Of a DNA stretch of 64,000 nt, positions 17,272-59,000 are shown piece by piece. Every line of letters starts with the position of its first letter. Position 1 is the stretch's first letter. The notes below the pieces were generated by a model, which made no database searches, had not been told where the DNA came from, and worked only from the letters and a program-made list of their open reading frames with translations. Position numbers and translations under genes: made by a program. This stretch comes from an uncultured Actinomycetes bacterium (GTDB lineage Bacteria; Actinomycetota; Thermoleophilia; Solirubrobacterales; 70-9), in the NCBI GenBank assembly GCA_963779815.1, contig CAVZZR010000001.1, forward strand, positions 594,588 through 658,587, read 5' to 3'.

Positions 17272-17469
17272 ATGACCGCGAAGGCCATGGAAGCCCACGA
17301 ATTGAAATCCCTGGTTGACGCCGGCTCCTACAAGCCGGATCCCGCACAGGTCGCGGTCGCGATGCTCAGCCGTCGCGGCGTTCGCGAGCTGCTGACGGGG
17401 ATCCACGCTACGGCTCAACCAAATGGTCATACCCCCTCGCCTCCAGCCGCCCACCCCCGGGCAGCCTGA
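17272..17469 (+). CDS. Small FlgM-like anti-sigma factor domain protein (65 aa)
   Basis: ELKSLVDAGSYKPDPAQVAVAML resembles the FlgM C-terminal helix motif; weak evidence. Confidence 0.3.
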   Translation: MTAKAMEAHELKSLVDAGSYKPDPAQVAVAMLSRRGVRELLTGIHATAQPNGHTPSPPAAHPRAA

Positions 17470-18403
17470 TCTCCACGCCTTCCCCCTCCGCGACGCGCGC
17501 CGATCGTGGTCAGCGTCGTCTCGGCTGCCTCGGCGACGGCGCTCGTCGCTTCGGCCAGCCGCTCGGCCGGCAGCGCCGCCAGCAGCTCGTAGTCCTCGCC
17601 GCCCGCCGCCGCGAGCTCGAGCGGGTCGCGTTCGGCCGCTGCCGCGACCGCGGCGACTCCCGCTGGCCACGGGCACCGATTCCGCCTCGATCCGCACTGC
17701 GACGCCGCCGGCTTGCGGCGAGGTGGCCGGCATCGCCGGCGAGCCCGTCGCTGAGGTCGATCATCGCCCGGGCTCCGGCGGCGGCGAGGGCGCGGCCGCT
17801 GCGCAGGCGCGGCGTCGGGTCGAGCTGGCGGGCGCGCAGGCTGGGCGGCGGCAGCGTCCGGCACGGCCGCGGCGAGGTCGGGGTGCTCGAGCAGGAGGCG
17901 GCCGGCGGCCGCGCCGCCGATCTCGCCGGTGAGGACGAGGAGGTCTCCCGGCTCGGCGCCGGCGCGGGTGACGAAATCCTCCGGCGCGGCGAGCGTGGCC
18001 GACCACCGTCACCGCCAGCGTCAGCGCGGGCGCCCGGGTGACGTCGCCGCCGGCCAGGGTGGTCCCGGTCTCCCCTCCGAGCTCGAGCAGGCCGTCGAGC
18101 AGGGCGAGGAAGTCGTCCTCGGCAAGATCGGCCGGCGCCGCCGAGGACCACGTAGGCCTCCCCTGCCTCGGCCCCCATCGCCGCGAGGTCGGAGAGGGCG
18201 GTTGCGAGCGCCTTGCGCCCGATCGTCCGCAGGTCGGCCTCGCCGCGGCGGAAATGGACCCCCTCGACGATCGCGTCGACTGAAGTCGCGGTGGCGCCGG
18301 TGGGAGCGGTGACCGCAGCATCGTCGCCGCTGCCGAGTCTTACCTGGGGACCGTCCGTCGGCAGACGCTCTCGCAGCTTTGCCAGTAACTCGAACTCGCC
18401 CAT
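17430..18403 (-). CDS. thiL: Thiamine-monophosphate kinase, disrupted by at least 3 frameshifts
   Basis: MGEFELLAKLRERL...VRLGSGDDAAV...VDAIVEGVHF (N-terminus), LAGGDVTRAPALTLAVTVVG and GEDYELL segments lie in three different frames. Confidence 0.7.
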
Positions 18404-18593
18404 CCTCCGACTATCCCAGACAAAGTGCCGTCCAAAGACCCCCACGCACGCCTGGCGGCACCGGACACTTCGCGGGGCGGCGTCCTCGGTCGGCCAAATG
18501 GCGCTGCCATTTGGCCTCCCTGCGTCCTACCCCCGCTTGGTCCGGCACTCGCCAGCCGCACGCGCGGGCCTTCGACACTAAGGTGCGACGGAC

Positions 18594-19703: not shown

Positions 19704-20870
19704 TACGGCGGTCAGGGCCAGGGTCAGCAGCTGCAGCGGGCGGTCGCGGGAGATCGCGGCCAGCGGCAGCGCCCAGACCAGGTACCAGGGAAGCAGCCAG
19801 GAGGTGGCGAGGAGCAGGCCGAGCGGCGGTCCAGGCGGCGGCGCGGACCCAGTCGCCGCCGCGCCAGGTCCAGGCGAGCAGGCAGGCGACGCCGCCGCGA
19901 AGAGGAGCGGCGGCGGCGAGGCGGACCGCGTCGGGGTCGAGGCCGGTGAGCCGGGCGACGGTGATCGGGATGCTCATGTGGCTCGTCCGGCTCTGGTTCT
20001 CCCCGGCCAGGCCGAAGGCGTGCAGCCAGTCCCAGCCGAAGGCGAGCCAGGCCGCGACCCCGACGCACGAACGCCGCCCCCAGGCCCCCAGGCGAAACGC
20101 CCGGCCGTTCGGCCGATTCCTGTTCGTTCCTATGTACGGAAAGGGACCAGACGGCGAGCGGGCGTGCCCAGGAGGGCGAAGGGGGCGAGGAAGGCGGCTG
20201 AGGCCTTGGTCGCGGCCGCGGCGACGAGGGCGGCGCCGGCGCTAGCCTCGCGGGCGCTGAGCAGGGCGGCGACCGCGAGCATCGCCAGCAGCATCGTCAG
20301 GCCGTCGTTGTGGGCGCCGCCGACGACGTGGACGAGGACGAGCGGGTTGAGGGCGACGAAGGCGGCGGCGCGCAGCGGGTCGACGCCGCGCCAGGCGGCG
20401 AGGCGGCTGACCGCGGCGGCGAGGCCGAGGACCGAGAGCGCCGCGACCGCCTTCAGCACCGCGACCGCGAGCGCCCACCGGCAGCCAGGCCAGCGGGATA
20501 GGTGAGGAGGGTGAAGAGCGGCCCGTAGGCGCTGGTCGCTTCGGTCCAGGTGACCTCGGCGTAGGCCGGGTCGGCGGGCGCCGCGAGGGGGGGGTGGACG
20601 TAGGGGTCGAGGCCGTGGCGGACGCCGAGCCGGGCGTAGTCGACGTAGCTGTAGACGTCGTGGGAGAGCAGGACGGGGGCCAGGGCGAAGGCGGCGACGA
20701 GGACGACGATCGCCGCCCAGACGGCGCGGCGGCCGAGCCGGGGCGCCGCGGCGAGCGAAGCCGAGGTAGGCGGCGAATCCGGCCCACATCAGGCCGAAGG
20801 CGAGCCCGGGATCGATCGCCCGCCTACCTGGTCCCGCCGGAGCTCGCCGCCGCCGAGTCGTTCCTGCGGC
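19674..20870 (-). CDS. GT87/DUF2029-family membrane glycosyltransferase (mannosyltransferase-like), frameshifted at least 3 times
   Basis: Motifs LSHDVYSYVDYARLGVRHGLDPY and NPLVLVHVVGGAHNDGLTMLL, C-terminal LLPWYLVWALPLAAI; fragments are in different frames. Confidence 0.6.
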
Positions 20871-20899
20871 TGCGGCGTGCGGGCGGCGGAGTGGCGCCG

Positions 20900-22977
20900 G
20901 TTCCTGGCCGGCGCCGGGCGCGTAGGCGTCCGGGTCGTAGCCGCCGACCGCGGCGCTGCCCGGCGGCGGCGGTCGCCTCCGCCGCTTCCCCGCCGCCGCC
21001 CGGCGTCGTCTCGTCGCGCGGGGCTCGAGCTGGGTGAAGCGGCCGTAGAAGGGCGCCCAGCTGATCTTCTGCGTCGGGTTCTGTCGAATTCCTCGCAGGG
21101 CACGCCCGCCGCCGTCGTAGAGCGAGTGCCAGATTTCGGCCGGGAAGGTGCCGCCGAAGACGGTCCGCCCGTGCACGCTGGTCATCGAGATGTCGTTCGA
21201 CTCCGGGTAGCCGACCCAGACCGCGGTCGCCAGGTTCGGCTGGTAGCCGGCGAACCAGGCGTCGGTGTATTCGTCGGTGGTCCCGGTCTTGCCGGCCTGC
21301 CCGGCGCAGCCGGTGTAGGCGGCGGTGCCGGTGCCTTCGGTGATGTTGTCGTGCAGCAGCCGCGTCACCTCCCAGGCGACCGCCGGCGAGAGCACCCGCT
21401 TCGGGTCCGCCGGCTTCGCGGCCGGTCGACGTGTGCCGCCCGGGAAGGTCGACCTTGGCGATCGCGACCGGGTCGCGGTGGATGCCGCCGGCGGCGAGGG
21501 TCGCGTAGGCGTCGGTCAGCTCCAGCGGCGAGACGCCGATCCGCAGGCCGCCGATCCCCTCGGCCGGGATCCCGTCGAGCGGGGTCGTGATCCCCATCGA
21601 CTTCGCCGTCTGCGGCGACCGCCTTCGGCCCGACGTCGAGGTCGAGCTGGGCGAAGACGGTGTTGTCGGAGGCGACCGTCGCCTGCTGCAGGTTGACCGT
21701 CCCCTGGTAGCCCTCGTCGGCGGTGTGGACCGCCCAGTGGCCCCACCGCGGCAGGTCGAGGTCGAGCGGTTTCGAGGTGTAGTAGGTCGAGTAGGGGTCG
21801 ATCCCCTGCTTGATCGCCGTGGTCAGGACGAAGGTCTTGAAGGTCGAGCCCGGCTGCCGGTGCCCCTGGGCGGCGAGGTTGAACTGGCTGTCTTCGTAGT
21901 TGGAGCTGGAGACCATCGCCCGGATGTGCCCGTTGCGGGGGTCGATCGAGACCAGCGCCGAGGAGGGGTCGGTCGAGTAGGGCAGGGCCGAGCGCATCGC
22001 TTCCAGCCCCACCTGCTGCAGCTTCGGGTCGATCGTCGTGTGGACCTCGAGGCCGCCGCGGCGCACCGTGTTGACCCCGTACTTCTCGATCAGCTTGTTC
22101 TCGACGTAGTCGAAGAAGTAGGGCTGGCGGTGGTCGAAGTAGTCGTCGGAGAGGTCCAGCCCGCAGCCCGCTCGCGCCGCGCCGCCCGCGCCCGCTCCGC
22201 GCTGACGTAGCCGAGCTTTGCCATCTGCGCGCAGCACCTGGTCGCGGCGCGCCTTCGCCGCCTCCGGGTTGAGGATCGGGTTGTATTCGGAGGGCGCCTG
22301 CGGCAGCCCCGCCAGCAGCGCCGCCTGCGGCAGCGTCAGCTTCCAGACCGGCTTCGAGAAGTAGATCCGCGCGGCGGCGCCGACCCCGACCGCGGTCGTC
22401 CCTTCGATCGTCCCGTAGGAGGCGATGTTGAGGTAGGAGCCGAGGATTTCCCGTGCGCGCTGTGGCGTTCGGCGTACTCGAGCGCCAGCTTCGCCTCGAC
22501 GATCTTGCGCTCGAGGTTCCGCTTCGGGTTGGCGATGCAGAGGTTGCGGACCAGCTGCTGGGTGATCGTCGAGCCGCCCTCGACCGCTTCGCCCGCTTCG
22601 AGGTCCTTGACCGCGGCGCGGAGGATGCCCTCGTGGTCGACGCCGCTCGTGCTGGTAGAAGCGCTGGTCCTCGATCGCCACCGTCGCCAGCTGCAGGTCC
22701 TCGGGATGCGCTCGATCGAGACCGGCGATGCGCGCCTCGTCGGAGGCGATGATGCCGAGCTTGCTGCCGTCGGCGGCGTAGAGGACCGAGTTGCCGCCCT
22801 TGGTCGATCGGCTTGCAGGTGGCGAGCGGGGGCGCGTCGGCGGCGACGTCGAGAACCCAGGAGGTGACGCCGATCACCGCGATCGCGAGCAGGGCGAGGA
22901 CGCCGCCGACGACGAACAGCAGCTTGCCGCCGATTCCCCCCGCGGCGGCGCTGGCGTCGCCGGTTGCGCTGCGTCAT
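20900..22977 (-). CDS. Class A penicillin-binding protein (transglycosylase/transpeptidase), frameshifted at least 5 times
   Basis: GT51 motifs EDQRFYQH and GGSTITQQLVRNL; TP motifs SxxK region and KTGTT (AGKTGTTDEYTDAWFAGY). N-terminal MTQRNRRRQRRRGG then -1 shift at a C6 run (22936-22941) gives the TM segment IGGKLLFVVGGVLALLAIAVIG. Confidence 0.75.
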
Positions 22978-24169: not shown

Positions 24170-25185
24170 GTGATTCGCCGTTTCTCGCCCTCCTCGTCGT
24201 CCTCGTGGCGCTGCTCCTGCTGCCCGCCGCTGCGCTTGCGACGCCGCCCGAAGCCGAAGCACGTCCGCGAAGCCGCGCGTCCGGTGCCCGAGGCGACGGT
24301 GAAGATCGAGGTCGGGCACCTGCACAACGGCCGCGCCGGATCATGGCGACGGTCCCGGTCATCGGGACCCTGGAGCCGTTCGTCGCCGGCCAGCGGGTCG
24401 AGGTCACCTTCTACCTCGACGGCCACCAGCTGGTCAGCCGCAAGCTCGCGGTCGGCAAGGGCAAGGGCGCGAACGGCACCTTCCGCTCCAAGATCATGGT
24501 CACCGAGGACGGCAAGTACGCGGTCAGCCGCCAAGCACGTCGCGACCGCCGGAGCTCGGCGGCGACAGCACGTTCGCAAGAGCTGGAAGGTCAGCTTCCC
24601 GGCGCTGCACCAGGGCCAGTGCGGCGCCGTCGTCGTCGGCTTCAAGAAGGCGATGCGGAAGATGGGCTACATCGCCAACCAGCGGCAGCTGCTTCGGCGG
24701 CAAGACCGCCCGCGGCGTCCTCGCCTACCGCAAAGTCAACGGCGATGACCCGCAGCATGCGCGCCGGCGCCGGCCTGGTCAAGAGCGTCTTCGCCGGCAG
24801 GGGCGGCTACAAGGTCCGCCACCCGGACGCCGGCGAACACGTCGAGGCGCCGCTCTCCAAGCAGGTGCTGGTCTTCGCCAAGGGCGACAAGCCGTTCGCG
24901 ATCTACCCGATCTCCTCCGGCAAGTCCTCGACCCCGACGGTCACCGGCCACTTCAGCTTCATCCGCACCGAACCCGGCTACAACTCGCACGGCATGTACT
25001 ACTCGTTCTACTTCTACGGCGGCTACGCGGTCCACGGCTACGAATCGGTCCCCGACTACCCCGCCAGCCACGGCTGCATCCGCACCTTCATCGCCGACCA
25101 GCCGGAGATCTACAACCGCATCCACTTCGGCGAGGACATCTTCGATCTGGTGACGGCGTGTCCCGCGGCGTCTGGCCGCGGATGA
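24170..25185 (+). CDS. L,D-transpeptidase with peptidoglycan-binding domain, frameshifted
   Basis: Signal peptide FLALLVVLVALLLLPAAALA; PG_binding_1-like AVVVGFKKAMRKMGYIANQRQL; YkuD catalytic HFSFIRTEPGYNSHGMYYSFYFYGGYAVHGYESVPDYPASHGCIR. Confidence 0.7.
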
Positions 25186-25351
25186 CGGACCCAGGCGGCG
25201 CCATGCTGCGTCCTCACGTCGCCCGAATAGCTCTGCTATCGGGCTCCCTGCGTCCTTGCCTGGCACCCCCTGTGCCTCGTCCTCCACTGGCCATCCACCA
25301 CAGACAGCCGTCACCGATCTTGGGAACCTTGGGGGATACTGTTGAAGGGGC

Positions 25352-26303
25352 CGATGAGGGTCTTCGTCGCTGGCGCCAGCGGGGCGATCGGGCGGCCGAC
25401 TGGTGCGGCAGCTGGTTGGCGGCCGGGCACGAGGTGGTCGGGATGACGCGGCGCGAGGAGCGGGCCGAGGAGATCCGCGCGGCCGGGGCCGCGGCGGTGG
25501 TCTGCGACGTCTTCGACGCCGAGGCGCTCGAACGCGGCCGTGGCTGCCGCCGCGCCGGAGGCCGTCGTCCACGCGCTGACCGCGCTGCCTCGTCGCTACG
25601 ACCCCGAAAGCGGACTACCTGGCGGCGACCAACCGGATCCGCGTCGAGGGGACCCGCAACCTCGTCGCCGCCGCGCAGGCTGCCGGCGCGAAGCGGCTCG
25701 TCGGCGAGAGCATCGCCTTCTGCCTACGGCCCGGAGGGCGGTTGGGTGAAGGAGCGAGGAGGCAGCCGCTGTTCACCGACGCGCCGGGCCGCTTCGGCGC
25801 CACCGTCGAGGCGCTTGTCCGAGCTCGAGCGCCAGGTGCTGGAGGCCGAGGGAGCTGAGGGCGCTCGTGCTGCGCTTCGGCTGGTTCTACGGCCCCGGCA
25901 CCTACTACGACCGCGGCGAGCAGCAGTCGCCGAGGAAGTCGAAAAGCGGCGACTCCCGATCGTCGGCACGGGGCAGCGGCACCTTCTCCTTCGTCCACGT
26001 CGAGGACGCGGCGCGCGCGACCGTCGCCGCCCTCGAGCGCGGCGCTCCGGCATCTACAACGTCGTCGACGACGAGCCGGCGCCGCTGCGCGAGTGGGTGC
26101 CGGTCTACGCCGAGGCGCTCGGGGCGAAGCCGCCACGCCGGGTCCCCGTCTGGCTGGCCCGCTTTGCTCGCCGGCAAGGGCGTCGCTCGACCGCGGCCGG
26201 AGCATGCGCGGCGCCTACGAACGCGAAGGCCAAGCGGGAGCTCGGCTGGCGGCCCGCGCACCCGAGCTGGCGCCAGGGCTTCGGCGAGGCCTCGCTCAAG
26301 TGA
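25352..26303 (+). CDS. NAD(P)-dependent epimerase/dehydratase-family (NmrA/SDR-like) oxidoreductase, about 3 frameshifts
   Basis: Rossmann MRVFVAGASGAIGRPLVRQLVAAGHEVVGMTR; C-terminal IYNVVDDEPAPLREWVPVYAEALGAKPP. Confidence 0.65.
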
Positions 26304-26352
26304 ACGAGTTGACCACACCTGGGTGGGTCAACTCGTCGCGGCCGACCTTAGG

Positions 26353-29404: not shown

Positions 29405-29478
29405 TGCCCCGAGCTGGATTCGAACCAGCGGCCTATCCCTTAGGAGGGGATCGCTCTATCCAGCTGAGCTATCGGGGC
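29405..29478 (-). tRNA. tRNA-Arg (anticodon CCT)
   Basis: Hand-folded: acceptor GCCCCGA/TCGGGGC, D-arm GCTC/GAGC, anticodon stem ATCCC/GGGAT with loop CTCCTAA, T-arm GCTGG-TTCGAAT-CCAGC, discriminator A; no encoded CCA. Confidence 0.85.
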
Positions 29479-34045: not shown

Positions 34046-36538
34046 ATGGCCAAGACCAGCGACGTTGCCGCGGAGGCGGCAGTTCCTTCAAGCGCCGATA
34101 TCGAGCGTGCGGCGGCGTTCGCGCGCGAGCCCTTCCTGCTCGACGGCGAGGGGCCGGAGGCGCTGGCGCCCGGGACGGCCCGGCGGCGCGCGCTCGACGC
34201 GGCGCTGACCGAGATCGACGACGGCGCCGAGCACCCCTCGATCGAGTGGCGGCGGGACTTCTCGCTGCTGCTCGGGCTGGAGCGCTTCCTCGCCGACGAA
34301 CCGCCGAAGCTGCGCGACGGCGCCGAACTGAACCCGCACCAGGTCGACGCGCTCTCCGGGACCCTGGCCGAGCTGATGGCCCAGCAGCAGGTCGGCGGCG
34401 CCGAAGAGGCGGCGGAGCAACGGCAACGGCAACGGGGGTGCCGCCGCCGAGAGCCGAGGCGCGCCGCCGCGGCGGTGCCGCCGAGGACGACGAGGAGACG
34501 AGGACGAGGAGCTCGCCGACGACGAGGAGCCGCAGGACTGGGAGGAACGGCCCGCCGACGAGGACGAGGAGGTCGTCGAGGAGGCGCCCGAAGACCCCGG
34601 CGCCGCCCGCCGCTTCTGGTTCGAGCACGCGACCGGCGCCGGCAAGACCGTCGCCGCGGTCGGCTTCATCGAGGCGACCCGGACCGGCGGGGTGCTGATC
34701 CTCACCCACCGCCGCAACCTGGTCGACCAGTTCATCGGCGAGATCTCCGACCGCGGCTACAAGGAGCGGCTGCGGCCGCCGCTGCTGGACGGCCGCGACG
34801 ACCCCGACGGCCCGGTCACGGTCGAGACCTACCAGTGGTTCGTCCGCAACCACAAGAAGGTCTCCGACGCCTACTCGATCGTCATCTGCGACGAGGCGCA
34901 CACCGCACTGGGCGAGAAAACCAGCGCCTGCATCCGCGACCTGGGACGGCCCCGTCTTCATCGGCATGACCGCGACCGGGGCGCTGATCGCGCGCCACGT
35001 CGCCGACCTCTTCCCGACCCAGACCTCGCGCTTCGACCTCGCCCAGGCCGCTCGCCGCGGCGTCATCTCGCCGCTGCGCTGCCTGCGGATCCCGCCCGGG
35101 CCGGGGGTGCGGACGATCGCCAAGGTGCCGCTGCGCAAAGGCGAGGTCGACCAGGACTTCGACCAGGAGGAGCTGGCGGCGCTGCTCGACCAGGAGCCCT
35201 TCAACGTCGCCATCGCCGACCTCTACCGCTCGCGCTTCCGCAAGGTCCCCGGCGTCCTCTACACGGCCGGCGTCCAGCACGCGAAGAACGTCGCCAAAGC
35301 CTTCCGCAACGCCGGCATCAACGCCCAGGCGGTCTCCGGCGAGACGCCGAAGCGCGAGCTGGCCGAAATCCTCGCCGGCTTCGAGCGCGGCGACCGTCGA
35401 CGTGCTCTGCAACGCGATGCTGCTGGCCGAGGGCTGGAACTCGCCGCGGGCGACGATCTGCATGCACCTGGCGCCGACCGCCTCGCGGCGGATCTACCAG
35501 CAGCGGGTCGGCCGCGTCACCCGGCGGGCGCCGGGCAAGGAGGCGGGGCTGGTCATCGACTTCGTCCACCCGGCGACCACCCACGACGAGACGATCGTCA
35601 CCCTCCACAGCCTGCTCGACCGCGACGTCTACCGCGGCGGCGCGATCGTCGTCGGGCCGGTGCGGCGCGGGCGCGGGCGCAAGGTCCGGGTCGAGCGGCG
35701 GATCGTGCCCGTCTCCGACGTCGAGGAGAAACGGATGGAGGTGCTGGAACGGGAGATCTGGCGGATCGCGGTCGAGAACCTCGACTACCCCGAGCAGCAC
35801 GCCTGGGCGGCGCTGGCCGGGGCCCGGGTCAACACCCAGGGCTGGCGGCGGGCGCGGGCGATGCTGCAGAACGACCGGACCAAGGAGCTGCGCCGCCGCT
35901 TCCTGCTGACCTGCGTGCAGCGCAACCGCAACGCGCAGCTGCGGCTGAAAGCGCTGGGGGAGATCGCCGACCTCGGCGACCCCGAGGCCTTCGACGACGC
36001 GATCGACATCGTCGGCACCTGGAGCCGCGAGGACAAACGGGCGGGGACGAAGACGCTGCTGCAGGCGCTGGTCGACAAGCGGATCGGCCGCCGCGACCAG
36101 GCGCAGGCGTGGGTCTGGCGGCTCGCCTCCTACACCCGCGAGCTGCACGAGGAGTACGCGGTGCAGCGCTGGCCGGAGACCAAGCGCCTGCTCGGCCTGC
36201 TGGTCAACTCCTCCGGCCGCGGCGCACGGGCGCAACGCGCGGCGGCTGGTGCACGCGGCCCGCAAACAGGACCGGCGCCTGGCGGTGGCGCTGCTGGCGG
36301 CCGCGGTCTCCCACACGCCCGAGGGCGAGGAGGTGCTGCGCGGGGCGCGGATGCGGATGGCGCGGAAACCCTCGGCGGTCGCCCGCGAGCTGCTGACGCA
36401 ACTTCCCCAAAGGCGGCAAGCGCCGGCGCAAGCGGAAACGCAACAAAGCGGTCCGGGCGAGGCAACGGCGCTGCGCCGGAGGCCAAGCAGAACGGCGGGC
36501 GGCGGAACTCGAAGAAGCGGAGCTCCTCAGGAGCTGGT
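34046..36538 (+). CDS. Superfamily-2 DEAD/DEAH-box helicase with alpha-helical-repeat C-terminal domain and basic tail, about 4 frameshifts
   Basis: Motif I HATGAGKTVAAV, motif II ICDEAHT, motif III GMTAT, motif VI QQRVGRVTRR; C-terminal repeats (LRLKALGEIADLGDPEAFDDAI...) then a KRRRKRKRNK tail ending about 36538. Confidence 0.65.
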
Positions 36539-41041: not shown

Positions 41042-41099
41042 CAGCGTCGCCTCCTCCGCTCCCGTGAGCCGCCAAGGGTCGTCTCGCTCCCGCGTCCGG

Positions 41100-41292
41100 G
41101 GGCGACGCTGCGGCGTCCTCGTCGCGTCCTCGGCGATCGCCGCCACCTCGCGCAGTTCGCGCTCGATCCGCTGCAGTTTCGCCGCCATGATCGCGACGTA
41201 GACGACGAGCAGGACGACGAAGACGACGTAGGCGCCGGCGACGTACTTGCCGGCCTCGTCGAGCGGCAGCGCCGGGGCCGGCGAGCAGCAGG
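41100..41292 (-). CDS. ccmD: CcmD-like small heme-exporter subunit (single TM), frameshifted; boundaries uncertain
   Basis: MDDPAGPAPALPLDEAGKYVAGAYVVFVVLLVVYVAIMAAKLQRIEREL reconstructed across frames; its frame reads on into hemA. Confidence 0.35.
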
Positions 41293-41319
41293 ATCGTCCA
41301 TCAGCTCACCTCCGGGGCG

Positions 41320-42027
41320 ATCCGCGAGCTGCCGCCGCGGGCCGGGCGCGTCGAGGGCGCGGCGCAGGCGCTTGACCTGGCCGGAGGCGCTCTTCGCGGT
41401 CAGCTCGAACTTGACCAGGGTCACCCAGAGCAGCGCCATCGCCGCCAGGCAGCAGAGGAAGGTCAGCATCATCGAGCCGGGCAGGCCGCCGTTCGGCGGT
41501 GGCGAAGACGCGCGGGTGGACGAGGCTCTGGGCCATCCGCACGGCCATGAAGTTGAGCGGCACGAAGGCGCCGGCGGTGATCGCGAAGACCGAGGCGTAG
41601 CGGGCCTGGCGCTCGCGGTCCTCGATCGCGTAGCGGAAGGGGTAGTAGGTCGCGTAGAGGAGGAAGACGATCAGGAAGCTGACCAGGGTCGGCTCGTCCC
41701 AGACCCACCAGTGCCCCCAGGAGGCCTTGGCCCAGATCGAGCCGGTGATCAGCACCGCGACGCCGAAGATCACCGAGATGTGGATCGAGACGTAGGAGTA
41801 GGCGTCCCACTTGCGGTCGCCGCTGCGCAGGTGGAGGATCGCGAAGACGCCGCCGACGACGAAGCCGACCAGCGGCGACGATCGCCAGCGGCACGTGCAG
41901 GTAGAAGATCTTCTGGATGAAGCCCTGGTCGGCGTCGAGCGGCGCGTAGAAGAAGACCAGCGAGAGCGACAGCGCGAGCATCGCCACGGTGGCGATCGAG
42001 AGGGGTCTTCAGTCCTTTGCCGTACAT
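41320..42027 (-). CDS. ccmC: Heme exporter protein C (CcmC), about 2 frameshifts
   Basis: WWD domain WGHWWVWDEPTLVS plus flanking TM helices. Confidence 0.7.
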
Positions 42028-42039
42028 GCTTCGCGGGGG

Positions 42040-42756
42040 GGGTGGACGCGTGGCGCCCGGTCAGTCCTCGAGGAGGAAGTCGAAGACCGCGTAGCCGACC
42101 AGGCCGAAGATCAGATCGTATAGGCCGAGGACCATCAGCCAGGTGCCGAAGCGGTGGTAACCGGGACCGCCCAGCCGCCAGCAGCGGCTCGGTGGCGCCG
42201 GTGGCGGCGATCATCAGCGGCACCACCAGCGGCAGCAGGACCAGCGGCACCAGCAGGTCGCGGGCGCGCGAGTTGACCGCCATCGAGGAGATCAGGGTGC
42301 CGGTCGCGGCGAGACCGAGGTCGGCGAGCAGCGAGGACCGCGACCAGCGGGCCGCAGGCCGCGGCCGCCGTCGAGGAAGAAGAGGGCGAAGATCGGCACG
42401 GCGACCAGCTCCAGGGCGCCAGCAGGTAGATGAGCAGCGCCGCCGCCTTGGCGGCGAAGAGGACGCTGCGGTCGATCGGCGCGAGCCGGATCGCGTCGAA
42501 GCCGCCCTCCTCGCGCTCGGCGACGAAGAGGCGGTTGATCCCGAGCACCGCGGCGAACAGCAGCGTCGCCCAGAGCACGCCGGCGGCGAGGCTGCCGGAG
42601 AGGCTGGGTGCGGTCGAGGCCGAAGCGGAAGATGACGAAGGTGGTGACGGCGAACAGCGCCATCGCCGGCAGCGACTGCAGGGTCCGCAGCTCCGAGCGC
42701 AGGTCCTTGGCGAGGATCGCGGCGAAGGCGGCGCGGGAGGGGGTCACGAGCACCAC
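42040..42756 (-). CDS. ccmB: Heme exporter protein B (CcmB), about 2 frameshifts
   Basis: CcmB-type TM segments (MVLVTPSRAAFAAILAKDLRSELRTLQSLPAMALFAVTTFVIFRFG...). Confidence 0.6.
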
Positions 42757-43416
42757 CGCCCGTCTCGCCGATCCCCAGCCGCAGCACCTGGTCGGCTTCG
42801 GGCACGTGGCGGTCGGGGTCGTGGGTGACGACGACGCGGGTGCGCCCGGCGCCGGGGCCGATCAGCCCGCGCGCCAGCTCGCGACCCTCGGCGTCGAGGT
42901 TGGAGTCGGGCTCGTCGAGCAGCAGCAGCTCCGGCTCGTGCAGGACGCAGCGGCAGATCGCCAGCCGCTGGCGCATCCCGGCCGAGAGCTCGGCGACCCG
43001 CTCGTCGGCGCGGCGCTCCATCCCGACGGCGCCGAGCAGCTCCTCGATCCGCGCCTCGGCCTCGGCGCGCCGGCGATCCCGTGCAGGCGCGCCGTGGAAG
43101 CGCAGGTTCTCGCGGCCGCTGAGGTCGCGGTAGAGCAGCGGCTCGTGGCCGAGGTAGCCGATCCGGCCGCGCAGCTTCCAGGCCTCGTCCGGCAGCGAGC
43201 AGCCGAGCACCGAGACCTCGCCGCCGCTGGGGCGCAGCAGCGTCGCGAGGATCCGCAGCAGCGTCGTCTTGCCGGCGCCGTTGGGCCCGAGCACGACCAG
43301 CGAGTCGCCGGCCAGCCAGCTCGAGGTCGACGCCGTCGAGCGCCGGCCGGTCGCCGTAGTCGCGCCGCAGCCCGGCGAGTGCGATCGCGGCCGGCCTGAT
43401 CCTGCGCGGGGGGCAT
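42753..43416 (-). CDS. ccmA: Heme exporter ATP-binding protein A (CcmA), 1 frameshift
   Basis: Walker A GPNGAGKTT, signature LSAGMRQRL, Walker B LLLLDEP. Confidence 0.7.
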
Positions 43417-46249: not shown

Positions 46250-47595
46250 GTGGCCGAGCAGCTCTTCGATACCGGCGACACCTCGGCTTCGGAACCGCAA
46301 GCCGTTCCCGCCGACGCGCCGCTGGCGGTGCGGATGCGGCCGCGCTCGCTGGACGAGGTGGTCGGGCAGGAGCACGTGCTCGGGGAGGGGTCGGCGCTGC
46401 GGAGCGGCGATCGAAGCCGGCAGGCCGCACAGCGCGATCCTCTACGGGCCGCCGGGGGCGGGGAAGACGACGCTGGCGCGGATCGCGGCGGCGGGGGCGC
46501 GAGGGCGCCTTCGAGGAGGAGTCGGCGGTCAACGCGGGCAAGGCCGAGATCCGCGGCGTGATCGAGCGGGCGCGGGAGCGGCGGCGGGCCAGCGGGCGGC
46601 CGACGATCCTCTTCCTCGACGAGATCCACCGCTTCAACAAGGCCCAGCAGGACGCGCTGCTGCCGGCGGTCGAGGACGGGACGCTGACGCTGATCGGGGC
46701 GACCACCGAGAACCCCTACTTCGAGGTCAACTCGGCGCTGCTCTCGCGCGCCCAGGTCTACGAGCTGCGGCCGCTGGAGCCGGCGCAGGTGGAGGAGCTG
46801 CTGCGGCGGGCGCTGGCCGACCCCGAGCGCGGGATCGCCGACGCCGCCGCCGGTCGACCGACGCGGCGCTGGCGATGCTGGCCGAGCGCAGCGGCGGCGA
46901 CGCCCGGGTCGCGCTCTCGGCGCTCGGAGCGGGCGGTCGAGCGCGCGGGCGGGGCAAGCGGCGCGGTCGACGTCGCCGCGATCGAGGACGCGCTGCAGCG
47001 CAAGGCGATCGACTACGACCGCCAGGGCGACCGCCACTACGACTTCGTCTCGGCCTGGATCAAGGCGACCCGCGGCTCCGACGTCGACGCCTCGCTCTAC
47101 TACCTGGCGGTGATGCTGGAGGGCGGCGAGGACCCGCGCTTCATCGCCCGCCGGATGGTCATCCTCGCCTCCGAGGACATCGGCAACGCCGACCCGCAGG
47201 CGCTGCTCGTCGCCGACGCCGCCGCCCGCGCCGTCGACCGCGTCGGCCTGCCCGAGTGCGCGCTCAACCTCGCCCAGGCGACCGTCTACCTGGCCCTGGC
47301 GCCGAAGTCGAACGCCTCCTACAAGGCGCTCGCCGCCGCCCGCGCCGAGGTCCGCGCCAACGGCGCCAAGACGCCGCCCGACTACCTGCGCGACGCCCAC
47401 TACCCCGGCGCCGCCGAGCTCGGCCGCGGCAGCGGCTACCGCTACGCCGCACGACGAGCCGGGCGGCGTCGCCGACCAGCAGCTGCTGCCCGAGGGGCTC
47501 GCCGGGCGCCGCTTCTACGAGCCGACCGACCGCGGCTTCGAGGCCGAGCTGGGCGCCGGCTGGCGGAGCTGCGCCGGCGCCTCGGCAAGTCGTGA
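46250..47595 (+). CDS. rarA: Replication-associated recombination protein A (AAA+ ATPase RarA/MgsA), about 4 frameshifts
   Basis: [21 protein letters not shown], Walker [52 protein letters not shown]-terminal MgsA domain [18 protein letters not shown]. Confidence 0.75.
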
Positions 47596-47800: not shown

Positions 47801-48640
47801 ATGGGCGCATGGCCGCCGATCGAGCCGCAGCAGCTGCGGCTCGGCGGCATGGCGCTGCGCAACGGGCTGCTGATCCACGGGCCGACCCACTGGGCGGCCG
47901 CGGTCCGCGCCGCGACGGCGGGATCGAGGTCGCCTCCGAGCGCAAGCCGGAGCTGGCGCCGGGCCTGGTCGCCGACAGCGCCCGGCCTGCGCGGGCCGGT
48001 GAAACTGGCCGAGGCGATGGCGGTGCTGCCGCTGGCGCGGCGGCGGCTGCCGGCGGCGCGGCTGCCGTTCGAGGACCGGCGGGTGCTCGCCGCGGTCGGC
48101 GCGACGCTGGCGCGACCGCGCTGCTGCGCCGCGCGCCTGCGCCACCGGCCGCTGCGCGAGGGCGTGGTGCAGGCGGTCGGCGCGGTGCCGGCGCTGGTCG
48201 CGCTGATCGGACCGCGACCTCGCCGCCTACCACGGCGTCGAGCACAAGGCGATCGCCGCCTACGAGCAGGGGCATCGACGACGTCGCCGGGGTGCCGAAA
48301 GAGCACGACCGCTGCGGCTCCAACCTGATCGTGCCGATGATGCTGCTCTCGGCCGGCGGCACGGTCCTGCTCGAGCGCCTGGTCGAGGAGCCCGAGCCCG
48401 CCGCCCGCGCCGGCGTCGGCCTCGGCGGCGCCTCGCTCGCGGTCGAGATGTTCGCCTGGTGCGACCGCCACCACGGCGAGCCGCTGGCCGAGGCCTTCCA
48501 CGCCCCGGGCCGCGAGATCCAGCGCCACTGGGCGACCAAGGAGCCGACGCCCGAGCAGCTCGAGGTCGGCGGTGGCGGCGATGGCGGAGATCCTCCGCGT
48601 CGAGCGGCGGCGAGGACCGCAGCCGGCCGCATAGACTGCG
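47801..48640 (+). CDS. DUF1385 family protein, about 3 frameshifts
   Basis: MALRNGLLIHGPTHWAAAVR and YHGVEHKAIAAYEQG...KEHDRCGSNLIVPMMLL motifs. Confidence 0.55.
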
Positions 48641-49279: not shown

Positions 49280-49904
49280 TCCGGTGAGCGCGCGGCACCT
49301 GCTCGGGGCGGCTCGCCGCGGCGACCGCTGGCGGCGGCGCTCTGGTGGCGCAGGAACCCCTCCGCCTGCCCCTACGGCCAGCGCTTCTGGGTGCGAAGCC
49401 CCGCACCCGATCATCACCCGCGAGCGCCTGCGCTCGGTGCTGCGGCCGCAGCCGGGCGAGCGCCTGCTCGAGATCGGCCTCGGCACCGGTTACTACAGCC
49501 TCGAGCTGGCCGAATGGGTGGCGCCGGAGGGGACGCTCGAGCTCTTCGACCTGCAGCAGGAGTTCCTCGACCACGTGATCGGCAAGGCGGCCGAGCGCAG
49601 CCTGGCGAACCTGGTGCCGACCCAGGGCGACGCGACCAACGCTCCCCTACGAGGACGCCTCCGTCGACGCCGTGGTCCTCATCGCCGTGCTGGGCGAGAT
49701 CCCCGACACCGCCGCGGCCCTGCGGGAGATCCGCCGGGTGCTGAAGCCCGAGCGGCCGCCTCGTCGTCGGCGAGCTCTTCGGCGACCCCCACTTCACGAC
49801 CCGGGCCGGCCTCGAGCGGACGGGGGCGGAGGTCCGGACTCCGCCTCGAGGAGACCTCGGGCAACTGGTTCGGCTTCTTCGCCCGGCTAGCGCCGCAGGC
49901 GTAG
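49280..49904 (+). CDS. Class I SAM-dependent methyltransferase, 1-2 frameshifts
   Basis: Motif I LLEIGLGTGYYSLELA, motif post-I LELFDLQQEFL, ASVDAVVLIAVLGEIPD, RVLKPGGRLVV. Confidence 0.65.
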
Positions 49905-49929
49905 GCGGTCGTAGCGCAGCGCCGTCCGC

Positions 49930-50431
49930 GCGGCGTTGCCGCCGCGGTCGGAGTACTCCTGCTCGTCCGGTCAGCCGGTCCAGATCCTGGCCGGCCATCG
50001 CCTTGGCCAGGAGGCCGTGCAGCTGCGCTCGCTCGGCCTGGCTGAGGTTGCCGAGCACCTCCTCCTCGAGCGTCCTCCAGCTTGCGCCTCGGCCTTCTCC
50101 AGCGCCGCGAGCCCGGCGGGGGTGATCTCGACGATGTGGCGGCGGCGGTCGCGGGGTCGCGGCGGCGCTCGACGTAGCCGTGCTCGTCGAGCTCGTTGAG
50201 CAGGAGCACGCAGTTGTTGGGGTCGAGCATCAGCGTCTGGCCGAGCGCCTGCTGCAGGCAGCCTCTCGGTGTCGCGCAGGTAGTTCGAGCGCGATCAGCT
50301 GCTTCAGCCGCATCCCGAGCACGTCCTCGGTGGCGCGGCGGTAGACGACGCGGGAGAGCTGGGATCAGAAGCCCGATCGAGCCGGTTGCGGTTGCCGGGT
50401 TCATCGCTGGATCTCCGAGCATATCGGTCAT
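49930..50431 (-). CDS. MarR family transcriptional regulator, about 2 frameshifts; boundaries approximate
   Basis: wHTH LGQTLMLDPNNCVLLLNELDEHGYVERRRDP; divergent from the MFS transporter. Confidence 0.6.
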
Positions 50432-50498
50432 TTGTTAATCGATCTTAACTTCAACGAAGGATAGTCATTGCTACAGTGATCGATCCCATGTCAGCTAC

Positions 50499-52016
50499 AT
50501 GAATCCGAGCCTGACCAACCAGTCCGTCCACCTCCGACCGATCCCGCTGGATCGCCCTCGTCGTCCTCTGCGTCGGGATGCTGATGATCGTCCTCGACGC
50601 CACCATCGTCAACGTCGCCCTGCCCTCGATCCAGGACGACCTCGGCTTCTCGCAGTCGAGCCTCGCCTGGGTCGTCAACGCCTACCTGATCGCCTTCGGC
50701 GGCCTGCTGCTGCTCGCCGGACGCCTCGGCGACCTGCTCGGCCGCCGCGACGTCTTCCTCGCCGGCCTCGCCCTCTTCACCGCTCGCCTCGCTCGCCTGC
50801 GGCCTCGCCCAGAGCCAGGAGATGCTGGTCGTCGCCCGCTTCGTCCAGGGCGTCGGCGGCGCCCTCACCTCCGCCGTGATCCTGGGGATGATCGTCACCA
50901 TGTTCCCGGAGCCCGGGCGAGCAGGCGAAGGCGATCGGCGTCTACAGCTTCGTCGCCTCCGCCGGCGGCTCGATCGGCCTCCTGGCCGGCGGCGCCATCA
51001 CCGAGGCGATCAACTGGCACTGGATCTTCTTCGTCAACCTGCCGATCGCGTCGCTCACCGGCGTCCTGGCGCTGCGCGCTGCTGCGGCGCGACCGCGGCC
51101 TCGGCTTCGGCCAGGGCGCCGACGTGCCCGGCGCGCTGTTGATCGTCGCCGCCCTGATGCTCGGCGTCTACACGATCGTCGAGGCCACCGACTACGGCTG
51201 GGGCTCGGCCCACACGCTCGGCTTCGGCGCCGGCTGCGCTGGCCCTGCTCGCCGGCTTCGTCGTCCGCGAGGCGCGGGCCGCGCAACCCGCTGGTGCCGC
51301 TGCGGATCTTCCGCTCGCGCAACCTCCCGGCGCCAACGTGATCCAGGCGCTGATGGTCGCCGGGATGTTCGGGATGTTCTTCCTCGGCGCCCTCTACCTG
51401 CAGCGCGTGCTCGGCTTCGACTCGCTCGAGGTCGGCCTCGCCTTCCTGCCGGTGACCGGGCTCATCGGCATGCTCTCGCTCGGCTTCTCGGCGAAACTGA
51501 ACCTGCGCTTCGGGCCGCGGGCGACGCTGCTGCCGGGCCTGGTCCTGGTCGGCGCTCGGCCTGCTCTACTTCTCGCGGATCTCGCGCCGACGGCAGCTAC
51601 TGGACCGAAGTGCTGCCGGCGATGGTCCTGATCGGCGACCGGCGCCGGCCTCTCCTTCCCCTCGCTGATGAGCCTGGCGATGGGCGGGGTCGCGCCGCGA
51701 GGAGGCGGGCCTCGCCTCCGGCCTGGTCAACACCAGCCTCCAGGTCGGCGGCGCCCTCGGCCTCGCCGTGCTGGCGACGCTGTCGACCAACCGCACCAGC
51801 GACCTGCTGGCCGGCGGCGACGCGCAACGCGGCGGCGCTGACCAGCGGCTACCAGCTCGCCTTCCTGGTCGCCGCCGGGCTTGTCGCCCTCGCCGTGCGG
51901 TCGCCGCGCTGGTCCTCGAGCCGCTGCGCCGCCGGCCGGCGCCGGCCGGCGAGCCGAGCGACCGAGGCCGAGCTCGGCGAGCTGCCGAGCCCGCCTTCTC
52001 CTCCGAGGCGGTCTGA
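50499..52016 (+). CDS. MFS transporter, DHA2 (14-TM drug:H+ antiporter) family, about 5 frameshifts
   Basis: MLMIVLDATIVNVALPSIQDDLGFSQSSLAWVVNAYLIAFGGLLLLAGRLGDLLGRR signature and downstream TM segments across frames. Confidence 0.7.
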
Positions 52017-54418: not shown

Positions 54419-54864
54419 ATGGAGGCACTGAAGATGGAGCGGCCGATGGACAACTGGAACGACGACCGGCTCGACGAACTGAACCGGCGCATGGGGGACG
54501 GCTTCACGAAGGTAGATGAGCGGATCACGAAGGTAGACGAACGGTTCGACCGGGTCGACGAGCGGTTCCAAGCAGGTAGACGAACGGTTCGACCGGGTAG
54601 ACGAGCGGTTCAAGCAGGTAGACGAACGGTTCGACCGGGTAGATGAGCGGTTCACGAAGGGTAGACGAACGGTTCGACCGGTTGGACAAACGGTTCGAGC
54701 AGGTCGCCATCCGCGAGAGCGTCACCGAGGTGAAAGAAAGCGTCGCTCGGATCGACCGAAGGCTGGAGCGGTTCGAAACTCGGATGGAGCAGCGGATGGA
54801 CCGGTTTACCTGGGCCTTCGTCGCGTTGGTGCTGGCCTTGCTGACGAGACGGTTCGTCAACTAG
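54419..54864 (+). CDS. Small C-terminally membrane-anchored coiled-coil protein built from about 9 heptad repeats (VDERFDR / VDERFKQ), 2 frameshifts inside the repeats
   Basis: MEALKMERPMDNWNDDRLDELNRRMGDGFTKVDERITKVDERFDRVDERF...VDERFDRLDKRFEQVAIRE...MEQRMDRFTWAFVALVLALLTRRFVN*; single +1 insertions at ttcCaagcag and aagGgtagac split it into three listed ORFs. Confidence 0.55.
54506..54706 (+). repeat. In-frame 21-nt (7-codon) tandem repeat, about 9 copies (42-nt super-period), inside the gene above
   Basis: ggtagacgaacggttcgaccgg / gtagacgagcggttcaagcag units repeated directly. Confidence 0.8.
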
Positions 54865-56030: not shown

Positions 56031-57502
56031 CTACAGCGCCACCCGAAGAGTCTTCAACTCCCGATCCGAACCCCCCCGGACATACCCGCCGTGGTCAAGG
56101 CTTTCCCGGATGAAGTCAAGAGTCTCCGGAGTAAGCCGCTCGCCAGGAAGCACATTCGGAATCCCCGGCGGATAAGCCGCCAGCCCCTCGGCGGCAACCC
56201 GCCCCGCCGCAGCGTCGAAGGGAACAACCTCCTGCGGCCCAAGGAACGCTTCGCGCGGCGTCAGCACCAGCTCTCCCCAGGGCGGCGCCGGCGCCAGCTT
56301 CTCGTCCGGCGCCCCCGGCGTCTCCTCCAGCTCGGCGACCGCCTTGCGCAGCCCCTCGACCAGCCGCTCGCCGCTCTCCTCCGCCCGCTCGCCGACGCCG
56401 AAGATCGGCGACGACGACGTTGCCCGAGTAGAGCTCGAGGTCGATCTCGCTGACGTGGAAGGCGGTCTTCCAGAGCCGCTGGGCGCTGGAGCCGGTGCCG
56501 CGGACGTCGATCCCGAGCCGCAGCGGGTCCCAGCCGGCGACGCCGGGCCGTCCGACCATCCGCTCGTCGAGCACGTCGAGCCCGGGGATCTCGCGGATCT
56601 TCTCGCGCGTCTTCGCCAGCCCCGCCATCGCCTCGCTCAGCATCTCCTCGCCGTGCACGTACATGTGGCGGCGGGCGGCGTCGAGCGAGCCGGCGAGGAG
56701 GCCGCTGGGGCTGGTCGTCTCGACCAGGCTGACGCAGCGGTCGACGACGGCGCCGTCGATGCGGCCGCCGCGGCCGAGGTGCAGCATCGCCGACTGGGTG
56801 AGGCTGCCGACGATCTTGTGGGTCGAGGAGGTGACGAGGTCGGCGCCGCAGGCGAGCGCGTCGGTCGGCAGGTCGGGGTGGAAGTGGAGGTGCGCGCCCC
56901 AGGCCTCGTCGACGACCAGCGGCACGCCGCGCGAGTGCGCGACCTCGGCCAGCGCCGGCGACATCGGCGCAGGCGCCGAAGTAGGTCGGGGAGACGACCA
57001 TCGCCGCCACCGCCTCCGGGCGTCTCGTCAAGCGCCGCCGCCAGCGAGTCCGGCGTCAGCCCGTGGGCGATCCCCAGCTCGGGGTCGAGCTCGGGGGCGA
57101 CGAAGGTCGGCCGCATGCCGCTGAGGACGAGGCCGTCGATCACCGAGGAGTGGACGTTGCGCTGGACGACGACCCGGTTGCCGCCGTGGGCGAGCGCCAT
57201 GCAGGCGGCGTGGTTGCCCTGCGAGGCGCCGTTGCCGAGGAACCAGGTGCGGCCGGCGCCCCAGGCCTCGGCGGCGAGCTGCTGGGCCTGCTGGAACGGC
57301 GTCGGCTCGGGCCCGACGTCGACCCCCTCGGTGACCGAGGGGATGTCGTTGCGCAGCCCCGCTTCGCCGACCAGCGCCAGCTCGCCGGGTCGGCGCCGAT
57401 GCCGCCCTTGTGCCCCGGCACCTGGAAGCGGCCCGGGTCGCGCTTCGCGTAGGCGAGCATCGCGTCGACGTAAGGAGTGGACTCCTGACCCTCTCCTGGC
57501 AT
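56031..57502 (-). CDS. PLP-dependent Orn/Lys/Arg decarboxylase (major-domain family), about 3 frameshifts
   Basis: PGHKGG, SSTHKIVGSLTQSAML (PLP-Lys), NGASQGNHAA, C-terminal FIRESLDHGGYVRG. Confidence 0.7.
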
Positions 57503-57596
57503 CGATCCGAGTCTACGGGTCGGCTTCAGGACGACTGGACAAATCCGCGGCCGATCTTTGGACAGAGCCGACGATTCGCTTGGTGGAGAATCCACC

Positions 57597-59000
57597 GATG
57601 CAGCACACCCGCCTGGGCTATTGGATCGAGGAGGCCGGCAAGGCCGCCCCGCAGCCGCCGCTGAGCGGCGAGCGTCGAGGCCGACGTCCTCGTCGTCGGC
57701 GGCGGCTACACGGGGATGTGGAGCGCCTGGTACGCGAAGCAGCTGCGAGCCCGAGGCGCGGGTCGTCCTGCTCGAGGCCGAGCCGGTCTGCGGGCGCGGC
57801 CCGAGCGGCCGCAACGGCGGCTTCTGCAACGCGATGTGGTTCTCGCTCGCTTCGATGCGCGAGCGCTGGGGCGACGTGCCGGCGCTGCAGGTGGCGCAGG
57901 CGGCCGAGCAGGCGGTGGCGCGGATCGGCGCCTTCTGCGAGGAGCACGCGGTCGATGCCTGGTTCCGTCCCGCCGGCTACGTCCAGGTCTCGACCGCACC
58001 GGCCCACGACGGCGCATGGGGCCGGGCGCTGCAGGCCTGCCGCGAGCTCGGGGTGCCGGAGATGCTGCAGCCGCTGAGCGCGGCCGAGGTAGCCGAGCGG
58101 TGTCAGTCGCCGGCCTTCCGCGCCGGCGTCGTCTCGCCGACCTCGGCGACGGTGCAGCCGGCGCGGCTTGCGCTGGGGTTGCGCGAGCAGCTGCTGGCGG
58201 CGGAGGTGGAGGTCTACGAGGCCTCGCCGGTCTCCTCCTTTCGGGAGAGCGGCGACGGCGTCGAAGCCCGTACCGCCTCCGGCTCGGTCCGCGCCGCCCG
58301 CGGCGTCCTCGCGATCGGCAGCGCCGCCAAGGGTCGCCGCGGCCCTCTGCGCGGGCGCCTCACCGTCGCCTCCTCCCACATCGTCCTCACCGAGCCGGTG
58401 CCCGACGTGCTCGAGCAGATCGGCTGGACCGACGGCGACTGCATCACCGACTCCCGTTCCCTGCTGCACTACTTCCGCACCACCCGCGACGGTCGCATCG
58501 CTTTCGGCTGGGGCGGCGGCCGGATCGCGATGGGCGCCCGCACCAAGGGCCGGGCCGAGGTCGACCCCGAGGTCGTCGCCGCGGCAACTAAGCACCTCCA
58601 CGACTACTTCCCCGCCCTCCGCAACCGCCGCATCACCCACGCCTGGGGCGGCCCGATCGACGCCTCCCCGACCCACCTCCCCGCCGTCAGCACACTCCCC
58701 CAGGGCAGCGCCTTCGTCGCCGCCGGCTACACCGGCAACGGCGTCGGCCCCTCCAACATGGTCGGCCGCACCCTCGCCTCCCTGGCCCTCGACGAAGACG
58801 ACGAGCACACCCACCTCGCCTTCGTCGACGCCAAGACCCCCCGCGTCCCCCCCGAGCCCTTCCACTGGATCGGCGGCGAGGCAATCCGCCTCGGCATCCT
58901 CAAGAAAGAGGAGGCAGAGATGCAAGGCCGCCAGCCCGGCCGCGTCTCCTCAGCCGTGGCGAAGATTCCGGAGCTGATCGGCTTCCACATCGGCCGCTGA
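57597..59000 (+). CDS. FAD-dependent oxidoreductase (DAO/glycine-oxidase family), 2 N-terminal frameshifts
   Basis: Dinucleotide fold DVLVVGGGYTGMWSAWYA, then VVLLEAEPVCGRGPSGRNGGF; 480-aa body in one frame. Confidence 0.7.
   Translation, partial: DAAHPPGLLDRGGRQGRPAAAAERRASRPTSSSSAAATRGCGAPGTRSSCEPEARVVLLEAEPVCGRGPSGRNGGFCNAMWFSLASMRERWGDVPALQVAQAAEQAVARIGAFCEEHAVDAWFRPAGYVQVSTAPAHDGAWGRALQACRELGVPEMLQPLSAAEVAERCQSPAFRAGVVSPTSATVQPARLALGLREQLLAAEVEVYEASPVSSFRESGDGVEARTASGSVRAARGVLAIGSAAKGRRGPLRGRLTVASSHIVLTEPVPDVLEQIGWTDGDCITDSRSLLHYFRTTRDGRIAFGWGGGRIAMGARTKGRAEVDPEVVAAATKHLHDYFPALRNRRITHAWGGPIDASPTHLPAVSTLPQGSAFVAAGYTGNGVGPSNMVGRTLASLALDEDDEHTHLAFVDAKTPRVPPEPFHWIGGEAIRLGILKKEEAEMQGRQPGRVSSAVAKIPELIGFHIGR

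Follow-up and report, generated by a model that had tools for sequence, protein, structure and literature searches.

Why should some 40 consecutive genes of a bacterial contig, indispensable ones among them, each have a broken reading frame when the genes on both sides are clean? The question is raised by a stretch of 64,000 nucleotides (hereafter the window) in contig CAVZZR010000001.1 (positions 594,588 to 658,587) of assembly GCA_963779815.1, from an uncultured actinomycete of the order Solirubrobacterales. A sequence-only reading of the window had ascribed the broken block, which runs from thiL to a FAD oxidoreductase gene, to homopolymer indel errors in a low-coverage or unpolished part of the assembly. 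We conclude that the block, 40.25 kb long, is very probably a consensus artefact, confined to one part of a long-read contig with poor support or no polishing; the proposed homopolymer mechanism, however, did not hold.

The G+C content of the window is 65-76%, and raw lists of open reading frames (ORFs) are therefore uninformative. Coding frame was tracked by third-position GC (GC3) and by a codon-usage Viterbi procedure trained on the flank genes; same-strand frame switches obtained in this way also count ordinary changes from one gene to the next. The Viterbi procedure gave 3.09 same-strand switches per kb at 17.3-57.75 kb (n = 125, in 179 segments), compared with 0.46 and 0.48 per kb in the two flanks. 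Eleven syntenic loci from metagenome-assembled genomes (MAGs) of related Solirubrobacterales had 0.38-0.79 switches per kb. Each gene is covered by one frame run at 1-17.2 kb and at 57.75-64 kb, and the frame changes every 100-500 bp between these regions. The observed frame breakage is thus real and far beyond chance, as the sequence-only reading had recognized. The window is divided as follows.

1 to 17,347, no strand: clean left flank (whole-gene stable frames, full-length Pfam hits)
17,348 to 17,495, no strand: left border (last intact gene ends at 17,347; first window-specific insertion at 17,495)
17,495 to 57,747, both strands: indel-laden block of about 40.25 kb with about 45 genes (alignment to relatives)
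57,748 to 64,000, no strand: clean right flank (Viterbi frames, Pfam, indel calls)

The left flank contains purA, dnaC-like, dnaB-like, L9, otsA, trehalose synthase, htrA, histidine kinase and response regulator genes. The right flank contains the rest of the DAO-type FAD oxidoreductase gene, abiEi and abiEii, two pot permease genes, a pot binding protein gene and an ABC ATPase gene.

Individual indels were called from three multiple alignments (MAFFT), each of which compared the window with 4-7 relatives. An event was scored only when every relative covering the site (at least three; 3-7 in all) disagreed with the window. Plain tblastn searches of the relatives' proteins against the uncorrected window undercount shifts because gapped extension continues in the wrong frame, and indel counts were therefore taken from the multiple alignments. 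We identified 192 window-specific indels of 1-2 bp in the block (about 37 kb alignable) and 8 in the flanks (about 16.7 kb), a highly significant enrichment (binomial p = 6e-22). Their spectrum was as follows.

Block: 130 one-base insertions, 31 two-base insertions, 26 one-base deletions, 5 two-base deletions; 5.2 per kb
Flanks: 2 one-base insertions, 4 two-base insertions, 2 one-base deletions, 0 two-base deletions; 0.48 per kb

Insertions of 1-2 bp outnumbered deletions 161 to 31 in the block (5.2:1; p = 2e-22 against 1:1), and insertion lengths fell off in a roughly geometric manner (130, 31 and 5 events of 1, 2 and 3 bp, respectively). Events per kb were distributed close to a Poisson expectation (dispersion 1.32, p = 0.085), with a mild local dip in density at 35-39 kb. 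The density corresponds to about one indel per 190 bp, much higher than the one per 500 bp estimated from the letters alone, and indels whose length is not a multiple of three (non-3n indels) ranged from 0 per gene (RHH antitoxin) to 20 (PBP1A), a wider spread than the proposed one to five. Every class of genes was broken, including core essential genes, toxin-antitoxin genes and strain-specific accessory genes. All of these window-specific indels were absent from the aligned relatives at the same sites.

In the multiple alignments, the window-specific indels of the block begin at 17,495 and end at 57,747, the latter position being within the DAO gene. Coding sequence at 5.3-17.3 kb, when aligned to relatives, was free of window-specific 1-2 bp indels, and the indel events of the right flank sit in a window-specific abiE segment. 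At the indel rate of the block, the chance of a clean flank would be 3e-11 on the right and 8e-28 on the left. The borders are therefore sharp and disregard gene boundaries, the right one lying inside a gene.

Is the block a foreign or duplicated segment? The histidine kinase of the left flank matches Solirubrobacterales MAGs at 87-95% amino-acid identity, and the colinear DNA is about 85% identical. Additional syntenic loci were found with the frame-corrected cobA/hemD and with the intact part of the DAO oxidoreductase. Genes of the relatives were taken from contig gene tables; a strict GC3-based caller missed half of them. All genes of the locus were intact in the relatives and occurred in the same order as in the window: thiL, LPG-synthase-like, GT87, PBP1A, MscS, CAAX protease and YkuD; Rv2525c-like, an RHH/PIN pair, galT, Band7, NfeD, thioredoxin, helicase and birA; cobA/hemD, hemC, hemA, ccmCBA, aldehyde dehydrogenase, rarA and DUF1385; and ECF sigma factor, two S51 peptidases, heptad-repeat protein, DUF8230, Orn/Lys decarboxylase, DAO and the pot genes. 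Synteny was unbroken throughout the block and across both borders, and relatives L003, L004, L007 and L008 were colinear across the left one. The matching gene order indicates that the block is the native locus, neither an inserted nor a duplicated segment. Comparison of the window with itself revealed no large internal repeats, and a search for repeats at the two borders or shared between them yielded chance matches only. Many of the close relatives are Nanopore-only MAGs that were assembled with metaFlye and one round of Medaka (PMC12313526).

To see what lies beneath the indels, 167 non-3n insertions were removed and 33 deletions were filled. After this correction, same-strand frame switches decreased from 125 to 48. 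Many of the remaining switches occurred in two window-specific segments where no relatives could guide the correction, and others were ordinary boundaries of adjacent genes. Twenty-eight corrected genes became single frames, with no internal stop in 8,505 codons. Coverage of the orthologues was 90% or more in each case (mostly 96-100%), and amino-acid identity to them was 69-97%; by the same measure, intact flank genes showed 92-93% identity. When proteins of the relatives were compared with the window, about 38 orthologous genes could be mapped, most with coverage of 0.93-1.0, and no large deletion or gene loss was seen in the block. Beneath the indels, the block is an ordinary, selectively constrained, syntenic orthologous locus.

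Substitutions offered a second view of the same DNA. On the left side, the rate of window-unique substitutions was 2.4-2.6% for the block and 1.8-2.6% for the flank; on the right side, the two rates were 1.6% and 2.3%, respectively. Identity of the window to each relative tracked relative-to-relative identity across both borders. Thus, substitutions in the block are not clearly elevated, and their codon-position profile is only marginally flatter. Two side observations were made on these comparisons. In the left flank (5.5-17.3 kb, compared with L003-L008), 45% of window-lineage substitutions fell in third codon positions, compared with 52-70% in relatives; this weaker bias could mean that substitution errors occur at a low level over the entire contig, or it could be a true property of the lineage. 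In addition, relative L007 had a unique-substitution rate of 5.9% opposite window positions 20-25 kb, about twice that of other relatives (about 2-2.6%), which suggests that this stretch is locally divergent or recombined in that MAG.

Where do the extra bases fall? Since MAFFT can misplace gaps, each 1-bp event was re-placed at the position that minimized mismatches, against relatives that are about 85% identical in DNA; the random expectation assumes that any position can receive an insertion and that bases are weighted by composition. Among 57 unambiguous 1-bp insertions, run lengths (including the inserted base) were distributed as follows.

Run length 1: 36 of 57 (63%), random expectation 48%
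Run length 2: 13 of 57, random expectation 31.5%
Run length 3: 6 of 57, random expectation 15%
Run length 4: 1 of 57, random expectation 3.8%
Run length 5: 1 of 57, random expectation 1.1%

Only 2 of the 57 insertions were thus placed in runs of four or more bases, where 5% would be expected at random, and 36 stood beside no identical base. Insertions are no more run-associated than random insertion would give, contrary to the earlier proposal that shifts sit at short homopolymers. Examples of run-free insertions without flanking mismatches include CCT[G]CCC, GTC[A]GCC and CCG[C]GGC. The block has about 2 runs of five or more bases per kb, and indels have left these essentially untouched. The inserted bases (25 G, 19 C, 7 A and 6 T) fit the composition of the genome (p = 0.71) and reject a uniform draw (p = 4e-4). 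No strand asymmetry of inserted bases was found: an early excess of G (15 G, 5 C) disappeared with more data (25 G, 19 C). An apparent depletion of insertions beside identical bases was rejected as a signal, being in part a gap-placement artefact of MAFFT (for example, the event at 19,405 is CC to CCC). We also counted codon positions, asking if insertions mark collapsed single-nucleotide polymorphisms of strains; 26 of 31 insertions adjoined a third codon position compared with 67% by chance (estimated p of about 0.03), a figure to be read with the preference of minimum-mismatch placement for variable sites.

Particular sites had been named in support of the homopolymer proposal. In a gene made of 21-bp (heptad) repeats, two units are 22 bp long, with TTC[C]AAG near 54,569 and AAG[G]GTA near 54,660. 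Because they stand among 21-bp units, these 1-bp insertions are demonstrated without any reference sequence, and the shifts at the two named sites are real; however, they extend runs of only one and two bases. At the start of the PBP gene, an extra base does adjoin the C6 run at 22,936-22,941, but it follows the run, and the length of C6 itself is the same in relatives.

The indel load is insertion-biased, nearly Poisson in spacing and accompanied by neither nonsense mutations nor deletions of genes, which is the opposite of natural pseudogene decay and therefore points to an artefact. The earlier preference for an assembly error over mass pseudogenization was thus borne out, in that removal of the indels yields stop-free orthologues. 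In the explanation we strongly favor, the consensus of the block would have been built from far weaker evidence than that of the flanks. Very few long reads may have spanned the block, a polishing step may have been skipped so that the draft was kept, or a near-raw long-read patch may have been used; the random insertion noise of such weak evidence would then be left in the sequence. Small-indel frameshifts are a recognized failure of long-read assemblies (bioRxiv 10.1101/2021.08.23.457338; PMC12007338).

Comparison with known systems helps to place the block. Frameshift errors of Nanopore and PacBio assemblies are similar in that small indels split ORFs and the fragments match orthologues once corrected; proovframe (bioRxiv 10.1101/2021.08.23.457338) and Kastor (PMC12007338) were made to repair such ORF-breaking indels. 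Unlike these errors, which affect the whole contig, those of the block are confined to 40 kb with clean flanks, about 84% of them are insertions, and they do not lie in homopolymers, whereas published residual errors are mainly homopolymer-length errors (PMC8812927, PMC9262707) or, for high-GC PacBio assemblies, C/G deletions (PMC8574707). The block also resembles raw single-molecule noise, being insertion-dominated, positionally random and not tied to homopolymers. Single-pass errors of PacBio continuous long reads (CLR) are insertion-dominated and close to random. However, the rate in the block (about 0.5%) is 20-30 times below raw CLR error, implying that some consensus must have been applied. 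A third comparison is with reductive pseudogene tracts (leaf-nodule Burkholderia, Sodalis and Mycobacterium leprae), in which, as in the block, adjacent genes each carry several frameshifts. In such genomes, decay is spread over the whole chromosome set, leaves essential genes alone and goes along with nonsense mutations, larger deletions and relaxed constraint. No trait of this list is seen in the block. In reductive tracts, again unlike the block, deletions prevail over insertions (insertion:deletion ratio about 0.76; PMC6054270; PMC2817411).

Several other explanations were considered. Homopolymer-length miscalling, as known from 454, Ion Torrent or Nanopore sequencing, would have left run-length errors where polishing was missing. 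Homopolymer errors are those that long-read assemblies most often retain (PMC8812927, PMC9262707, PMC8574707), and a few sites, namely the two in the heptad-repeat gene and that beside C6, do touch short runs. The placements given above are against it, from the 36 insertions that make no run to the unchanged C6 and the intact long runs. In addition, the block has gained bases, whereas G/C deletions are expected in high-GC genomes (PMC8574707); we regard this mechanism as very improbable. A different kind of assembly fault would be a chimera, in which the block came from another, low-abundance strain and was stitched between flanks of the dominant strain, hence its poor consensus. Such a patch would be a sub-type of artefact compatible with the favored explanation. 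Sharp borders and the size of about 40 kb are consistent with it, strain mixtures are frequent in soil metagenomes, and the block does carry strain-specific cargo (epimerase, MarR and an MFS transporter). However, the nearest relative and the level of divergence stay the same across the borders, window-unique substitution rates show no break there, and there is no border repeat to account for a join in the assembly graph. The strain patch is therefore unsupported, and we consider it unlikely. Less likely still is corruption in silico by a simulator or a data-handling step, which would lead to the same biological conclusion. The pattern is that of a simple error model (Poisson-like spacing, composition-weighted bases, geometric lengths and no detectable substitutions), but the flank proteins are found verbatim in public NCBI and ENA records, on a single contig of 1,882,042 bp, and the dip in density at 35-39 kb resembles uneven read support more than it does the output of a fixed-rate simulator.

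The remaining alternatives take the deposited sequence at face value. The block might be genuine biology, with about 200 true frameshifts in a decaying redundant copy, in DNA of a defective or dead lineage, or in a region of localized insertion-prone mutation; the sequence itself reads so, and the slightly flatter codon-position profile of window-unique substitutions goes in the same direction. Natural bacterial pseudogenes, however, have insertion:deletion ratios of 0.76-0.94 by count and 0.18-0.32 by size (PMC6054270; see also PMC2817411), and the ratio of 5.2:1 in the block departs strongly even from 0.76 (p = 4e-31; PMC6054270). Neither a nonsense substitution in the corrected codons nor a large deletion or gene loss accompanies the frameshifts, the window holds no large internal repeats, and substitution load and amino-acid identity are normal. 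Moreover, genes that are normally indispensable (PBP1A, heme pathway, ccm, birA and thiL) are broken at their native syntenic locus, the only one visible for them, and a neutral process would not halt at two sharp borders, one of them within a gene. Genuine frameshifts are accordingly hardly credible. In particular, it appears extremely improbable that some 160 random single-base insertions are really present in the DNA through a localized, insertion-specific mutational process otherwise unknown in bacteria. Under that reading they would belong to a Solirubrobacterales population or to relic DNA, with lesions too recent for substitutions, stops and deletions to have followed, a scenario to which we give as little weight. 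Programmed recoding or RNA editing, by which extra bases would be tolerated and skipped by ribosomes or an editing system, has nothing in its favor beyond the restoration of ORFs on single-base removal. The sites share no common motif, occur in diverse contexts with random spacing and are absent from every relative; deletions and 2-bp insertions are among the events; and the phenomenon stops abruptly at two borders, while flank genes of the same organism need no recoding. Its probability is negligible.

Some observations weigh against the consensus artefact, or at least against its simplest form. Non-homopolymer insertions are not what a polished long-read assembly usually retains: in Nanopore data, the errors left over mostly concern the length of homopolymers (PMC8812927, PMC9262707), and high-GC genomes assembled from PacBio reads alone have C/G deletions, over 70% of them in homopolymers (PMC8574707). 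The signature is a better fit to a near-raw or very low-depth consensus than to a normally polished one, and it does not allow the platform or the failing step to be named. We infer from the error signature that read support was low or polishing was missing, and we also take the source to be, in all likelihood, a Nanopore-type long-read MAG. In addition, relative L084, with a 21.5-kb syntenic locus on a 2.56-Mb contig, has a normal 0.79 frame switches per kb; if that contig is of long-read origin, as suggested by its size, the failure in the window is local and not general to such assemblies. Finally, second codon positions received 0.25-0.30 of window-unique substitutions in the block compared with 0.23 in the left flank. 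Substitution errors may thus form a small component in the block, but one that is unlikely to exceed about 0.3%.

The value of a consensus artefact of this kind lies in quality control, not in biology, and gene calls within the block should not be trusted. In a public contig, about 45 genes (among them PBP1A, those for heme and for cytochrome-c maturation, birA, thiL and rarA) are wrongly called as fragments or pseudogenes, which would bias estimates of completeness, counts of pseudogenes, metabolic reconstruction and protein databases. The window illustrates that failure can be local and sharply bounded (roughly Q23 accuracy) in an otherwise good megabase contig, so that genome-wide quality scores miss the block. 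A homopolymer filter would miss it too, whereas a scan of frame-switch density (3 versus about 0.5 per kb) detects it without a reference.

Which genes are affected? Identities were assigned by Pfam scans of pseudo-translations of the window and of the relatives' genes. The scans agreed with the sequence-only reading on thiL, PBP1A, hemA, hemC, cobA/hemD, ccmABC, rarA, galT and the ECF sigma factor; Pfam scans and repeat-unit lengths likewise confirmed the DAO-type FAD oxidoreductase and the heptad-repeat gene. Features located in the block are listed below.

17,497 to 18,278, minus strand: thiL (AIRS domain), over several frames (Viterbi segments; Pfam AIRS spans joined fragments)
20,826 to 22,977, minus strand: PBP1A (transglycosylase and transpeptidase), 20 non-3n indels (17 insertions, 3 deletions)
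25,370 to 26,340, plus strand: NAD-dependent epimerase (insertion in the alignment, absent from relatives; Pfam Epimerase spans frame joints)
29,405 to 29,478, minus strand: intact tRNA-Arg(CCT) (Rfam 70.6 bits, ARAGORN)
36,536 to 43,388, minus strand: birA, cobA/hemD, hemC, hemA, ccmC, ccmB and ccmA, 1-5 non-3n indels each (order and Pfam families from relatives)
46,334 to 47,583, plus strand: rarA/mgsA, 6 non-3n indels
49,888 to 51,982: MarR regulator (minus strand) and MFS transporter (plus strand) (Viterbi; Pfam MFS_1 and MarR span frame joints)
54,498 to 54,704, plus strand: 21-bp (heptad) repeat gene (repeat-unit lengths)
57,598 to 58,997, plus strand: DAO-type FAD oxidoreductase, last two insertions at 57,673 and 57,747, in the first 150 bp; rest intact

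PBP1A was the most damaged gene of the block. After correction, its 716 codons formed a single frame without a stop, and identity to the L003 orthologue was 82%. Corrected cobA/hemD showed 92-93% identity to orthologues over 99-100% of the query, and the corrected DAO gene had its 466 codons in one frame, with 92.7% identity to the orthologue in L085. Genes specific to the window were also affected: the NAD-dependent epimerase gene is frameshifted about five times, and the MarR and MFS genes many times each. The MarR/MFS set stands where L085-L087 have amine oxidase, SDR and glyoxalase genes.

Additional observations were made along the locus. The heptad-repeat gene consists of about ten 21-bp repeats encoding VDERF(D/K)(R/Q)-like units, and its ORF is kept in relatives at 63-122 amino acids, with no Pfam hit. 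A 99-nt tRNA-Ala(TGC) called by ARAGORN at 47,884-47,982 (minus strand) scores below the Rfam gathering threshold and lies inside or beside the DUF1385 coding region; this call is probably a false positive. An intact pair of AbiEi antitoxin and AbiEii toxin genes is located at 59,129-60,549, between the DAO and pot permease genes. In L085-L088, the pot genes directly follow DAO, and the abiE pair is thus a strain-specific insertion in the window. Window-specific intergenic insertions, absent from all relatives, occur at 18,426-18,570, 25,172-25,235 and 26,290-26,340. They contain perfect hairpins, with arms such as GGCCAAATGGCGCTGCCATTTGGCC and GAGTTGACCCACCCAGGTGTGGTCAACTC-like ones, and could be terminators or small mobile repeats.

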